The notes beneath the pieces were generated by a model. It ran no database searches, was not told the DNA's origin, and was given only the letters and a program-made list of their open reading frames with translations. Source: Flavobacteriales bacterium (GTDB lineage: Bacteria > Bacteroidota > Bacteroidia > Palsa-965). From it: a stretch of 64,000 nucleotides of DNA. Both the position numbers and the translations under genes were made by a program. The DNA is taken from the NCBI GenBank assembly GCA_040377305.1, contig JBEIPA010000002.1, forward strand, positions 194,272-258,271. Reading direction: 5' to 3'. This document shows positions 3,397 through 8,200 of the stretch, one piece after another. Within the stretch, counting starts at the first letter, position 1; each line of letters opens with the position of its first letter.

Positions 3397-3484
3397 GCGG
3401 CAAAAGTACGGAAATAGAGATTAGTGGATTAGGGATTAGAAGGCAGGAGTTGTAAATTTGAGTTTAGACAATTACCCTGCCCAC

Positions 3485-6160
3485 ATGAGATTACTACTAC
3501 TTTTTCTGGCATTGAATTTCGCGACTCAGCTGAACGCGCAACGATTTATCCAAAATCATGAAACACGCGATGTGACATTCACTGAACTTCAGCGACAGTT
3601 CGCTGCGTGGAAAGACACAACTGATCTTACACAAACAAAAGGCTGGAAATTTTACAAGCGTTGGGAAATGGAAGTGCTCATGCACACCGATGGCAGTGGT
3701 GAACCGGGCGATCCCACAGAATATTTCCGGGCCGCGACAGCTGAAGCAACACATCGTCAGCCTGCAGGAAATGAAGTTCAGTTTAACGCATGGTATCCTG
3801 TTGGTCCGGATTATGTGCCGAACAATCTCACCGGTTATATGGAGAACGGAATCGGAAGGATCAACTGCATTGCATTTCATCCGACCGACGTGAACACCTA
3901 TTACGTTGGAGTTGCGCAAGGTGGCATGTGGAAAACAACCAACAACGGTACTAGCTGGACTCCCCTCACCGATCAGCTTCCGATTACGCGCATAAGCGAC
4001 ATTGCACTTGATCCCAATGATCCGGATAGCACGATGTACATTTCGGTGTGCGATTTCGCGTACATAGGCGTTGGATTGGATCTCAACGGACGTAAACGCC
4101 ACACGCATTATGGAGTTGGTGTGTTCAAGACAACTGATGCGGGTGCGACCTGGCAATCAACAGGACTATCGTTCTTGCTCACTGATGGTGATGGTTCACT
4201 CATCCGAAAAATTTATGTGAATCCGGCCAACAGCAATGAAGTTGTTGCGTGCGGCGTTACCGGAATGTATCGATCAACCGATGCCGGGCAATCGTGGACG
4301 ATGGTGCAAGCTGGATTATTCTGGGACATGATTCAGGATCCAACAACACCGTCGACGTTATACGGTGCTACAGGTTGGGTAATGAATGCAAACGCCGGAG
4401 CAACCGGAATTTATAAGTCAACAAATTTCGGTCAGACGTGGACCGCATTGAACACAGGAATGCCGGGAACAGGAACAGTGCAACGCGTTAAGCTGGCGAT
4501 TGCCCCTTCCGATCCGAACTACATTTATGCAATCACGACTGATGTCTTCAGCGGACTGCATGGTATTTACAAAACCACGAATGCAGGTGCTAATTGGAAT
4601 TTCATTTCTCCTGCATTGAATATTCTTGAATACGATGATGGCTTCAACCAGGGTGGTCAGGGAAATTACGACCTCGCGGCAGTAGTGAGTGCAACTAATC
4701 GCGATGTGATTTACGTGGGTGGAGTAAACCTTTGGGGTTCTGCCGACGGTGGAGTGACGTTCGAACCAGCAAGTCACTGGACGTTGAATTTCGGACCGAC
4801 GATACACGCCGACATTCATTACCTCGCGCAACAACCGGTGAGCGGAAATTATTTCGTGTGTAATGATGGTGGAGTTTACAGAACCAGCACGATTCAGACA
4901 CAAAGCTGGAATGCTGCAAACGGAGGAAATCCCTGGCCGACAAACTGGTTGAACATCAGCAATGGCATGCAGGTGACTTCATTCTACCGTTTATCAAGTT
5001 CAAGAAATGCGGCAGATCGTCTCATCGCAGGTGCGCAGGACAATGCATCCTTCTATTTCGATAATGGTGTGTGGAGCACGGTTTACGGCGGAGATGGAAT
5101 GGATAATTATCTTGATCCTTTGGATGATGATATGATATTCGCATCAAGCCAGTATGGAAATTTTGCGAATTCAAATGACGATGGAGCGAGTTTTGGGTGG
5201 ATGAATGCCAACGTTAATAACGAAGCCGGTGAGTGGGTTTCTCCTATCGTTGCAGATTACAATAATCCCGGCACCATTTACATTGGATTCGAAAACGTAG
5301 TACGTTCAACCAATAACGGAAACACATGGAATGCAATTTCCAATTTTTCGTTCCAGAATCAGTCTGTTGAAATATGTGCGCTCGCTGTTTCGAATTCGAA
5401 TTCACAAGCACTGTTGGCAGCTAAACGTGTTCGCTACGAAGCCAATGAACCTGCGCGCTTGTACAAGACCGTGAACGGTGGTGGATTGTGGACCGACATC
5501 ACACCCGGATTGCCAGATTCACTTTATTACACAGGAGTTGAATTCGATGAGACCACACACAACACAATTTATGTTTGTATGGCTGGGTTCTCTTCCGGCA
5601 ATAAAGTTTTTCGAAGCACTAACGGCGGAACAACGTGGCAGAATATTTCATTCAACCTTCCGAACATTCCTGTGAATTGTATCAAGTACATTCCGGGAGG
5701 AAGTGGTGATGTGATGATCGCAACCGACCTTGGAATATATCTATTGCAATCATCCAGCTCAACCTGGGTGAATCAAAGTCTCGGATTGCCGAACGTTATC
5801 TGTAGTGATATTGATTTCAATGTTCCGCTCAACAAAATTTACGTGAGCACATTCGGGCGCGGCATTTGGGCGACCGATCTTGATGTGTTTACCGGGACGC
5901 TCACCACAACAACTTCGGCTGTGACGATGAATTTGTTTCCATCGCCGAACAATGGAAGTTTCACTTTAGAAATGAATGGTGAAGCCGCAACTGATTTGTA
6001 CTCACTTGAAATCCGAGATGTGATGGGCAAGATTGTTCACACGCAATCGTTGCAAGGAAGCAACCGGTATAATGTGCAATTCACTGCTGCGCCGGGAATG
6101 TATTATGCGCACATACGCGGGAAGAGTTATTCAGGGGTGAAGAGTTTTGTGGTGAATTGA
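3485..6160 (+). CDS. BNR/Asp-box (VPS10/YCF48-like) beta-propeller protein with T9SS C-terminal sorting domain
   Basis: Repeated S/T-T-D/N-x-G-x-T/S-W Asp boxes; C-terminal LFPSPNNGSF...GMYYAHI...KSFVVN; signal peptide from ATG 3485; -7 box TAAATTTG at 3453-3460. Confidence 0.85.
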   Translation: MRLLLLFLALNFATQLNAQRFIQNHETRDVTFTELQRQFAAWKDTTDLTQTKGWKFYKRWEMEVLMHTDGSGEPGDPTEYFRAATAEATHRQPAGNEVQFNAWYPVGPDYVPNNLTGYMENGIGRINCIAFHPTDVNTYYVGVAQGGMWKTTNNGTSWTPLTDQLPITRISDIALDPNDPDSTMYISVCDFAYIGVGLDLNGRKRHTHYGVGVFKTTDAGATWQSTGLSFLLTDGDGSLIRKIYVNPANSNEVVACGVTGMYRSTDAGQSWTMVQAGLFWDMIQDPTTPSTLYGATGWVMNANAGATGIYKSTNFGQTWTALNTGMPGTGTVQRVKLAIAPSDPNYIYAITTDVFSGLHGIYKTTNAGANWNFISPALNILEYDDGFNQGGQGNYDLAAVVSATNRDVIYVGGVNLWGSADGGVTFEPASHWTLNFGPTIHADIHYLAQQPVSGNYFVCNDGGVYRTSTIQTQSWNAANGGNPWPTNWLNISNGMQVTSFYRLSSSRNAADRLIAGAQDNASFYFDNGVWSTVYGGDGMDNYLDPLDDDMIFASSQYGNFANSNDDGASFGWMNANVNNEAGEWVSPIVADYNNPGTIYIGFENVVRSTNNGNTWNAISNFSFQNQSVEICALAVSNSNSQALLAAKRVRYEANEPARLYKTVNGGGLWTDITPGLPDSLYYTGVEFDETTHNTIYVCMAGFSSGNKVFRSTNGGTTWQNISFNLPNIPVNCIKYIPGGSGDVMIATDLGIYLLQSSSSTWVNQSLGLPNVICSDIDFNVPLNKIYVSTFGRGIWATDLDVFTGTLTTTTSAVTMNLFPSPNNGSFTLEMNGEAATDLYSLEIRDVMGKIVHTQSLQGSNRYNVQFTAAPGMYYAHIRGKSYSGVKSFVVN

Positions 6161-6241
6161 TGATGTTGGTAAAGCGCCGGTTCGGAGAGGTTGGTGAATT
6201 TTTGTGGAGTAAATAAACTAGTTACCGGTAATTCGACCCTC

Positions 6242-6601
6242 GTGAGAACACTACTCTTTTTTGTGCTGATATACTCGATGAATTCTTGTGCTGAAAAGCA
6301 GAATTCCAATTTTCTAATTGGGAGTTGGAAGCTGCGAGATGTAGTGAATAATACTGGACAGAACGTTTCCGATAAGATGACTTTTTTCGAAAATGATTCG
6401 ATCTCAATCGAGATATTGCAGGATGGAAAAGTCATCGAACAGTATTCAGGTAAATTCCAATTAGACACTGTTCGAAACGAGCTTACAGCGATTTATCGGG
6501 ACAGTATTGCAACAACATTTCAAATTGAGCTTCTGTCGGAATCTGAACTCGAGCTTTATAATCCCAATACAAAAAGAGTAGACCGCTACCTGAAATATTG
6601 A
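6242..6601 (+). CDS. Lipocalin-like lipoprotein (gene cassette 1)
   Basis: GTG 6242 gives MRTLLFFVLIYSMNSC (lipobox-like Cys) and a LIGSWKL lipocalin-like GxW motif. The start lies just inside the proposed cassette boundary at 6221. Confidence 0.7.
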   Translation: MRTLLFFVLIYSMNSCAEKQNSNFLIGSWKLRDVVNNTGQNVSDKMTFFENDSISIEILQDGKVIEQYSGKFQLDTVRNELTAIYRDSIATTFQIELLSESELELYNPNTKRVDRYLKY

Positions 6602-6603
6602 AC

Positions 6604-6693
6604 TACCGGTAACAGCGCATTGGCTCCACGCGCTTTTCAAGTATATTTATCAGAAGGAAAAGCGCGCGGAGCCAATCCGCAAAACGTTAGTAG
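6604..6693 (+). repeat. attC-like palindromic site 1
   Basis: TACCGGTAAC (6604-6613), then a 20-bp stem 6619-6638/6657-6676 with one mismatch, then GTTAGTAG (6686-6693). Confidence 0.7.
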
Positions 6694-6701
6694 CAATAAC
6701 C

Positions 6702-7508
6702 ATGAGTAGGGTTCTTCTATTCTTATTATTCATATGTTCAAGTCGAATGGCTTGTGGTTCCAATCCATTCTGGGTACGATTGGATAAGAAGTTGATTTCT
6801 CAAGTAGTGAAACTTGACAAGAACAATCCAGTTGAAGTAGAATCTTTTTACAGGCATCGTACCCGAGATACTACCAAACAAAATCTTGGTTTCGGATGGC
6901 ATATGTGGGAGACAAGGATTGGAGGCGGTTACATCAGTATTGCTGCGTGCTTCTACTACTTTAATGACACTATTGCGAGTTATTCTCTCTCGCCACAAAT
7001 GCCTGACGAAGGCAATCTTGTCGTCAAGTATTCAGAATGGTACGCACCATCCTTCAAAGTTGATTCCAATAGAGTAACACCGTTCGAATACAATATGAAA
7101 CGCATTATCTCACCACTTGACAAATATGCTGGCGACTTAGCACCCGATTCAGTTCCAATGAATATTCGGGAATATATGTCGCCAAGCTCAGGAATCATGT
7201 ATGGATACCGTGGCGGTTATGGCATGTCATTACTGCAAAATCGAGCCGAATTCATGTCGCTGAATGAAAAACTAACTACAGATCAAGTTGTGATTATGAT
7301 GTATTCGATTAATCCAGCCAGTAGATTTACTGCCATAGAATATTACATAACAAATAAGTCTCAGTTCACGGATACACTCAAGATCGATCAATGGATTAAT
7401 ATTTGTTTTGCTGAACTCCCAGAGGTCACCACTTTAATGGGCTGCTTTGTTACAAAAATGGATTCACGCTCGCTGGTTTACTTACTCGTTGGAATAAAAC
7501 CCTACTAA
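6702..7508 (+). CDS. Hypothetical secreted protein (gene cassette 2)
   Basis: 268-aa ORF with a hydrophobic N-terminus, AT-richer than the flanks, bounded by attC-like sites. Confidence 0.7.
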   Translation: MSRVLLFLLFICSSRMACGSNPFWVRLDKKLISQVVKLDKNNPVEVESFYRHRTRDTTKQNLGFGWHMWETRIGGGYISIAACFYYFNDTIASYSLSPQMPDEGNLVVKYSEWYAPSFKVDSNRVTPFEYNMKRIISPLDKYAGDLAPDSVPMNIREYMSPSSGIMYGYRGGYGMSLLQNRAEFMSLNEKLTTDQVVIMMYSINPASRFTAIEYYITNKSQFTDTLKIDQWINICFAELPEVTTLMGCFVTKMDSRSLVYLLVGIKPY

Positions 7509-7585
7509 CTACCAACGCTAACAGCAAATTGGCACAACTCGCTTTCCTCGCATATTTATTAGAGAAAAAGCGCGGATTGCAACCC
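7502..7585 (+). repeat. attC-like site 2 (right arm degenerate/truncated)
   Basis: 7519-7574 matches 6610-6666 at 45 of 57 aligned positions; the closing GTT is absent. Confidence 0.6.
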
Positions 7586-7586
7586 A

Positions 7587-8054
7587 TTACCACGTCGTAA
7601 ACGGCCTCAACACCAAATTAGCGTTCGTGTATTGCTTTTCTGTCGTGACGTTGCGATCAATCCAATCGGGCAACAGATACTTCTCATCGATACTGCTCAA
7701 TTCAATTTCAGCGACAATTAATCCGGAATTTAATCCGTGAAACTCATCCACTTCCCAGGTGTGTTCACCGTGTTGCACGTAGTGGCGTGTCTTTACAATG
7801 TCCTCGGAACAGAATTCTGCCAACATTTCTTCGGCATCTGAAAGCGGAATCTCGTATTCGAACTCAAGACGTGATGCGTTGGTCGATTTTCCTTTGATGG
7901 TTACGTATCCTTGATCCCCCATGACGCGAACGCGTACGGAACTCACAGGTGTTGCAGCTATGTATCCTTGCTTAACGGGCTTACTGTAATCCGGAACAAT
8001 CTGTTTCCATAGATCAGTTTTGACAAGATACTTGTGTTCGATTTCGGTGGGCAT
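7587..8054 (-). CDS. CYTH domain protein
   Basis: EIEHKYLV, RVRV, EFEYEIP, WEVDEF and AEIEL motifs. Confidence 0.9.
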   Translation of the reverse strand: MPTEIEHKYLVKTDLWKQIVPDYSKPVKQGYIAATPVSSVRVRVMGDQGYVTIKGKSTNASRLEFEYEIPLSDAEEMLAEFCSEDIVKTRHYVQHGEHTWEVDEFHGLNSGLIVAEIELSSIDEKYLLPDWIDRNVTTEKQYTNANLVLRPFTTW

Positions 8055-8122
8055 AGATGTTGCTTGTTTTTCAAGACGATTTATAACTGCTTGCGTTGGA
8101 TGTTAATCTATACGCGGGTTAA

Positions 8123-8200
8123 TCCCGATAGCTATCGGGACCACGTAGCTCATGTCCTTTTGGGGCTACCTCGCATTTATCCGCGCGATAAATCGCACGG
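8123..8200. repeat. Cluster of intergenic REP-like palindromes
   Basis: Perfect 18-bp palindrome TCCCGATAGCTATCGGGA (8123-8140) followed by GTAGCTC..GGGCTAC and ATTTATC..GATAAAT hairpins. A degenerate copy lies at 61378-61394. Confidence 0.6.

Follow-up and report, generated by a model that had tools for sequence, protein, structure and literature searches.

Integrons and CALIN arrays are the described systems with which the locus reported here can best be compared. Canonical attC sites carry two or three extrahelical bases near L'' (PMC5027507), and the I2 helix of IntI docks these bases and blocks the second strand exchange (PMC5027507, PMC7790495). This helix is held to permit hairpin sites and to avert a lethal second strand exchange, and the missing evolutionary intermediates are described as an obstacle (PMC7790495). 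Hardly any integrons are reported from Bacteroidetes in surveys (IntegronFinder 2.0, 10.1101/2022.02.28.482270); about half of the class genomes sampled nonetheless encode the enzyme family described in this work, whose closest members stand at the head of cassette arrays.

Here we describe a two-cassette array in a Flavobacteriales genome. With a probability of about 0.65 in our estimate, it is a satellite of an integron-like Bacteroidota system, with a worn docking copy at its head, and was filled in trans by a recombinase encoded on another contig (C19), which is related to IntI and is devoid of the IntI insertion. Like integrons, including the sedentary chromosomal ones, the system has tandem promoterless single-gene cassettes, R'' and R' boxes (AAC ... 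GTT) that are complementary cassette by cassette, a bottom-strand folding bias and a docking site beside a tyrosine recombinase of the IntI clade. With CALIN the locus shares two or more sites with cassettes, no integrase nearby and, probably, formation by an enzyme encoded elsewhere (route i in PMC8618304); unlike CALIN, it has sites that are not canonical attC, an attI-like head of its own and a remote enzyme that is not IntI. An initial annotation of this DNA had left the choice between a CALIN-like array and a lineage-specific cassette system served by a tyrosine recombinase elsewhere. Since the genome holds no canonical IntI and the sites are not canonical attC, the locus is not a classical CALIN, and the second option is the one that agrees with our results, as the C19 enzyme, the candidate, heads an array with the same sites and docking core. 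No description of such a system was found in the literature searched, most subscription journals lying outside that search. An integrase insertion that is "not fully conserved" has been mentioned for an integron-like subgroup (PMC8138268), so the family may be listed in the supplements of that paper.

Layout of the locus, cassette ends and sites

The window, that is, the whole stretch of 64,000 nucleotides that was analysed, lies on contig C17 of a genome of 5.2 Mb (60 contigs, GC 0.451). The assignment of the host to Bacteroidota is based on the type IX secretion tail of the upstream gene and on those relatives of the C19 recombinase that have a name. The features of the locus are collected in Table 1.

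Table 1. Coordinates of the cassette locus and its flanks in the window.
Feature	Position	Strand	Remarks
Upstream gene	3458-6160	co-oriented with array	stop at 6160; type IX secretion tail
Docking (attI-like) copy, read as worn, left half only	6163-6221	+	core AAATAAACTAG at 6211-6221; GTT 6221-6223
Cassette 1, 465 bp, intact	6222-6686	+	start and R'' complementary, 10/10 bases
ORF1, about 119 aa from in-frame GTG	6242-6601	+	open frame 6191-6601
attC-like site 1, intact	6607-6692	+	R'' 6607-6613; long stem; 18-nt loop; right-arm lopsided bulge; R' 6686-6692
Cassette 2, 900 bp	6687-7586	+	end complementarity; decayed site
ORF2, 268 aa	6702-7508	+	no Pfam or NCBIfam family matched
attC-like site 2, decayed	7516-7589	+	site HMM and alignment to site 1
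CYTH gene (PF01928), convergent	7587-8054	-	stop codon overlapped by last bases of site 2

The window array is a real cassette array, and its cassette boundaries can be read directly. Cassette 1 starts with ten bases (6221-6230) that are the exact reverse complement of 6604-6613, and the start of cassette 2 (6686-6693) is the exact reverse complement of 7502-7509; both matches had been pointed out in the initial annotation, together with a partial one between the start of cassette 2 and the R'' box at 7516-7522 directly before site 2. The latter is weak (5 of 10 bases), and the eight-base match sits 13 nt upstream of that box, on the stop codon of ORF2. Both ORFs are AT-richer than their surroundings, as had been observed before, with a GC of 0.380 (ORF1) and 0.399 (ORF2) against 0.451 in the genome and 0.469 and 0.455 in the flanking genes.

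Each ORF had also been said to be followed by a homologous palindrome. The homology holds (47 of 60 columns, or 45 of 57 without the first three), whereas the palindromy holds for site 1 and not for site 2. The bottom strand of site 1 folds with -28.8 kcal/mol (z -8.6) into a 20-pair stem without bulges, so the uninterrupted 20-bp stem with extra unpaired bases on the right arm is true of this site and strand; on the top strand (-24.2, z -5.9) the stem is broken by one A-C mismatch. Site 2 folds no better than shuffled sequences (z +0.6 for the bottom strand, 0.0 for the top one); its right arm has degenerated, and the expected GTTA is replaced by ATTA (7586-7589), which overlaps the CYTH stop codon. 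The array thus consists of one intact and one decayed site.

An HMM was built from eight sites on contigs C19 and C12, and our genome was scanned with it at E < 1e-4. Site 1, which contributed nothing to the model, matches at E 2e-27, and site 2 at E 4e-9, the latter match being limited to model positions 9-70. In all, members of the site family lie at 14 places, namely eight on C19, four on C12 and the two in the window, all of them on the strand of the ORF row; the remaining matches below the threshold are the same palindromes read backwards. The further arrays and the linked tyrosine recombinase that the initial annotation proposed to look for were found, as the C19 and C12 rows and the enzyme that heads the C19 row. 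A palindrome spread genome-wide irrespective of ORF ends, which that annotation had set against its own reading, is not what the scan gave: the 14 places form three rows in one orientation. This confinement to three co-oriented gene rows argues against a REP element or terminator. That the sites are ordinary REP-type repeats or terminators between unrelated genes, as the stable intergenic hairpin of site 1 taken by itself would allow, has in our view hardly any probability left, because sites of the family follow stop codons closely (31 of 49, compared with 11% of random positions), neither ORF is a core gene, and the end-to-start complementarity, specific to each cassette, effectively refutes it.

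Several observations on the other rows accompany these results. The main array (C19:55804-44900, minus strand) mixes sites of an 80-nt and a 126-nt type and has intact sites near the recombinase, grading to decayed or absent ones further off. The 80-nt type of the window recurs nearly unchanged behind a recombinase of the family in a relative (L070). A 1425-aa ORF with a lysine-rich tail (C12:3074-7351) is convergent on the end of the C12 array. Using an HMM of the left arm, we found a lone cassette-like unit at C4:18503-18895 (+), with a site of the 126-nt type whose R' is decayed and with no docking core, which is possibly an off-target insertion.

ORF1 has its GTG start inside the cassette and a lipobox-like cysteine, both read from the sequence, and its product is predicted to be a lipoprotein, weakly lipocalin-like; the match to the lipocalin-like family PF13648 (E 8e-4) lies under the family cut-off. 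A single other homologue was found, 89% identical, by a search that gave no genomic context. Among 300 other genomes of the class, homologues of ORF1 occur in none and those of ORF2 in one, so neither ORF belongs to the class core, and the case in which both were syntenic core genes, considered in the initial annotation, does not apply.

ORF2 homologues are patchy: there are 83 matches including ORF2 itself, the named ones mostly from Bacteroidota. A metagenome scan with the single ORF2 protein gave no match and one with an ORF2 alignment gave 27 loci. Read by eye, the homologues at L118, L119, L122 and L123 are clear cassettes with 10-base complementary ends, lying after different sites and among other neighbours, and that at L137 is probably a cassette too. 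At most of the 27 loci, also read by eye, cassette marks are decayed or none, or the locus is cut off; the homologue in genome G192 shows no cassette marks. Where the start of cassette 2 in the window departs from the starts of the four clear cassettes, 7502-7509 has the corresponding changes; this box may therefore be the true R'' of cassette 2, and site 2 a composite remnant. Cassette 2 has probably been immobilised through the decay of its own site.

At the right flank, CYTH relatives are present in 5 of 26 genomes of the genus. Four CYTH regions in relatives, one of them from the unpublished genome G012, shared none of the eight other window proteins tested, and no empty site was obtained. 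Additionally, a short palindromic repeat of another kind lies between the CYTH gene and the next one (8122-8141); similar copies, likewise intergenic, occur upstream of the C19 recombinase, on C4 and in L148, and it is probably an ordinary REP-like element.

Docking copies and the C19 recombinase

Directly before cassette 1 lies a 13-mer core (6211-6223), a feature absent from the initial annotation. It occurs four times in the 5.2 Mb, on C19, on C12, in the window and at the start of C57; each copy is followed by a cassette-type start, and the core heads all three rows as well as the C57 unit. The expectation by chance is 0.35 per genome. When the 48 nt upstream of the core in the window were compared with those of the other copies, none of 5000 random 48-mers scored as well against the C57 copy and 17 of 5000 did so against the C12 copy; no resemblance to the C19 copy was seen, as 23% of random 48-mers reach that score. 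The family hairpin is gone from the window copy (z 0.0), which matches an HMM of the other copies at E 0.61 and is still the best match outside the training set. We read this segment as a worn, displaced docking site.

Because the bare core is expected 0.35 times per genome, the window copy could be a chance look-alike. An attG-type event is the insertion of a cassette at an off-target site, and the array could have arisen by such an insertion at a look-alike of the core beside the CYTH stop, with no displaced docking copy. In this sense, the R' of the last site is the CYTH stop codon itself, the lone C4 unit lacks a core, and off-target insertion is among the routes listed for CALIN (PMC8618304). 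We nevertheless judge this origin improbable, since the likeness to the C57 and C12 copies reaches 48 nt past the core.

Slightly less improbable, though still unlikely in our view, is a relic: the locus would once have had a recombinase gene of its own, or would have been split from a main array by rearrangement, and it would be dead now after insertion of its cassettes in cis. The decay of both the docking copy and site 2 would fit such a history, as would the loss of intI and the rearrangement listed among CALIN routes (PMC8618304) and the fact that the C12 and C57 copies begin with TAG about where the stop of a recombinase would be. Against it, tblastn over about 3 kb upstream of the window, C12 and C57 copies found no recombinase remnant (no E better than 0.3), the stop of the upstream gene and the core are only 60 bp apart, and cassette 1 is pristine, with its 10/10 end match.

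The copies at C57:174-290 and C12:10965-11080 (both minus) are recombinase-free docking modules of about 115 bp with a common left boundary at the TAG. Behind the C57 module come a cassette-type start and an ORF resembling response regulators, which is cut by the contig end; no continuation of this unit was found. A pattern search for the docking core matched 3 of 26 other genomes of the genus. By alignment, one match (L148, on contig C117 of genome G015) looks like a true docking module of the C12 and C57 kind, and it has a cassette-type start; the alignment does not bear out the core-pattern matches L145 and L147 as docking modules. No recombinase of the family was found in G015 (96% complete, 540 contigs).

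The C19 recombinase (293 aa) lies directly upstream of the C19 row and is co-oriented with it, the core lying about 90 nt past its stop; members of the enzyme family likewise sit co-oriented about 100 bp upstream of the core. Seven proteins of our genome match PF00589 and none of them is encoded on C17, in agreement with the earlier statement that no intI is in the window; no IntI was found in the genome above the TIGR02249 cut-off. The C19 enzyme matches TIGR02249 in two stretches (212 bits, cut-off 265) and NCBIfam NF040815 marginally above its cut-off (220.9 against 220). R150, K175, H240, R243, H266 and Y275 are invariant in 41 rows, and the catalytic motifs are intact in the C19 enzyme. 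Unlike integron integrases, the enzyme is co-oriented upstream of its array and has no IntI insertion: counting only rows that carry both motifs, the spacing from KG.K.R to H.LRH is 58-59 residues in the family, with 59 in the C19 enzyme, against 100 in nine IntIs and 60-67 in XerC/XerD. The IntI-specific insertion, that is, the I2 helix, is a gap in all 26 family rows, and the alignment to VchIntIA (2A3V) skips it. About 65 N-terminal positions of the family profile, present in most relatives, are missing from the C19 copy, whose activity may thus be incomplete; several of its close relatives are just as short.

In a tree of 54 rows, from which L005 was dropped as no frame was found and in which two long-branch rows were kept, the family, TnpF and 14 IntIs lie on one side of a branch (97/87) that separates them from XerC/XerD, which supports the grouping and not the order inside it; the IntI clade has 99/100. 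The XerC and XerD of our own genome branch apart from the family. The enzyme has the size and fold of XerC/XerD and of archaeal XerA, and XerA 5HXY is its best solved match by sequence and by structure (Z 23.6, rmsd 9.4, 252 aligned), compared with Z 21.2, rmsd 11.1 and 257 aligned for IntI 2A3V. The tree rows comprise the family, TnpF, IntI and XerC/XerD and none from XerA, so the grouping with IntI is relative to XerC/XerD. The structure model (pLDDT 82.6, pTM 0.60) gives little beyond the alignment.

With a profile of the family, matches at E <= 1e-60 were obtained in 101 of the 201 class genomes, a count of recombinase matches only that includes our own genome and the unpublished G118; another search (15 of 41) undercounts the family, having missed G020 and G041. 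The IntI model gave no match above its cut-off in 121 genomes apparently of the same class; among 81 genomes of the class to which an Ignavibacteria genome belongs, 18 passed it. In one genome labelled Ignavibacteria (G322), a canonical IntI (439 bits) coexists with a recombinase of the family that has docking motif and site (L077 and L156).

Arrays behind the recombinase in relatives

We compared 96 recombinase loci, 16 from one search, including our C19 locus and one from the unpublished G012, and the best 80 of at least 585 from another. The unpublished genomes contribute one of the 96 loci and one of the four CYTH regions (G012) and one of the 101 matches (G118), and no conclusion rests on them. 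Many contigs of the relatives end within a few kb downstream of the recombinase. A docking motif lies within 200 nt of the recombinase stop at 73 of the 86 loci with enough sequence (median 98 nt), as compared with 2 on the reverse strand and a mean of 3.5 (maximum 11) in shuffles, and the sequence is variable directly after its GTT. We infer that this motif acts as attI. The fourth base goes with the cassette and the base before the G stays with the left partner, which places the crossover within GTT; by analogy with integrons, the exact point would be G|TT.

A model-free hairpin detector found 64 sites in the 276 kb downstream of the recombinases, but on the same strand no more than 6 in the 635 kb upstream of them; antisense matches downstream numbered 18. 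In our own genome it gave 26 matches on both strands, mostly chance (61 and 23 with other spacers); since it lacks specificity genome-wide, we rely solely on its enrichment behind recombinases. When the left spacer was set to 5 nt and the right one left free between 4 and 12, the right spacer measured 8-9 nt in 53 of 57 distinct sites, so the lopsided geometry seen in the window is a family trait. Gap-free pairing over 20 columns was seen in 53 family sites, the detector having required gap-free stems, which bulged sites would escape. In arm columns that the detector does not use, pairing is 0.84 against 0.44 with shuffled partners, with several pair types per column (49 sites). These sites differ from those of integrons in having no extrahelical bases in the L region, a 5-nt left and an 8-9-nt right spacer, and pairing that begins 1 nt after R''. 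This geometry suggests that they would escape the attC model of IntegronFinder/HattCI.

G-T wobble mismatches number 96 for the bottom strand against 7 for the top one, or 47 against 7 when one conserved column, which gives 49, is set aside, and these counts overstate independence as the sites are related by descent. Taken together, the wobbles and the fold of site 1 favour the bottom strand. Over 38 cassettes, the cassette end matches its own start at 5.8 of 7 bases and the start of the next cassette at 3.3, with a p-value of 6e-6 that is overstated because related sites are not independent. Unlike in integrons, the docking site usually folds: 53 of 69 recombinase-linked docking segments do so at z <= -2, with little strand bias, as against 0 of 69 coding controls.

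A TAnnTTT[G/C] element, which we take to be the Bacteroidota -7 promoter motif, occurs within 45 nt of the recombinase stop at 46 of 91 loci (9 in reverse; mean 4.2 in shuffles). Such a promoter-like element was not seen in the docking copy of the window. At six loci (L031, L038, L063, L074, L078 and L086) a similar ORF start, noticed by eye, directly follows the recombinase at the usual place of the docking motif.

The fixed spacing and orientation of recombinase, docking motif and array at those 73 of 86 loci also bears on who moved the cassettes. Real cassettes might have been mobilised by another enzyme, the host XerC/XerD or an IntI missing from the assembly, the C19 recombinase being a passenger. 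XerC and XerD are indeed present in our genome, which is assembled in 60 contigs, and hairpin-forming elements are described as exploiting Xer (PMC7790495). Yet besides the fixed arrangement, IntI exceeds its cut-off neither in our genome nor in the 121 apparent members of the class, whereas it does so in 18 of 81 genomes of another class, and we consider such a passenger role very improbable. We infer instead that the C19 enzyme acted at the window locus.

Proposed mechanism and relation to known systems

Cassettes of this system would pass into circular form and be integrated at the docking site through a crossover within GTT. Each new arrival would take the head position, which would make cassette 1 a later arrival than cassette 2. 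The folded bottom strand of a site would be the hairpin substrate of a C19-type enzyme. With neither extrahelical bases nor an I2 helix, a 1 x 4-5 nt bulge beside the R box may set register and direction. Since recombinase-linked docking sites fold too, both partners may be hairpins. The window cassettes would be promoterless and read through from the upstream gene (stop at 6160), because the docking copy is without the promoter-like part.

As the I2 insertion and the extrahelical bases are both absent, we do not file the system as an integron despite its integron-like working. We think it fairly probable that it constitutes a second, phylum-wide kind of integron in Bacteroidota, with an I2-less enzyme that is a sister or forerunner of IntI, bulged hairpin sites devoid of extrahelical bases and a docking site that is possibly folded, which has seeded several recombinase-free docking copies and supplied tet(X3) to Acinetobacter as a first-position cassette. 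It would then be a gene-capture system common in Bacteroidota and the window locus an outpost of it, small and half decayed; what is new here are the recombinase-free docking copies, with one enzyme seemingly serving several in one genome. A natural enzyme without I2 and with matching sites makes the question of I2 and of the missing intermediates testable.

The relation to tet(X3) comes from TnpF ("xerD"), encoded upstream of this gene on Acinetobacter plasmids, which is 43.5% identical to the C19 enzyme and falls in the same clade. TnpF departs from the family in that its docking motif is off consensus and the site after tet(X3) is cut short, and it has been described as one component of a unit moved by ISCR2 rather than as a cassette platform (PMC8635130). 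In L115:5211-7400 (FJ012881.1) and L116 (NZ_CP041297.1), tet(X3) lies directly behind TnpF and starts after a GTT preceded by a foldable segment. Its start is about 170 nt downstream of TnpF, and after the gene come an R''-like box and the left part of a site of Bacteroidota type, which is cut off there. From these features tet(X3) looks like a cassette of the same system, which may be an unrecognised source of resistance genes. A Chryseobacterium plasmid (L117, NZ_CP041688.1) also carries a family recombinase with a docking motif and a row of small genes, broken by IS110 and a group II intron.
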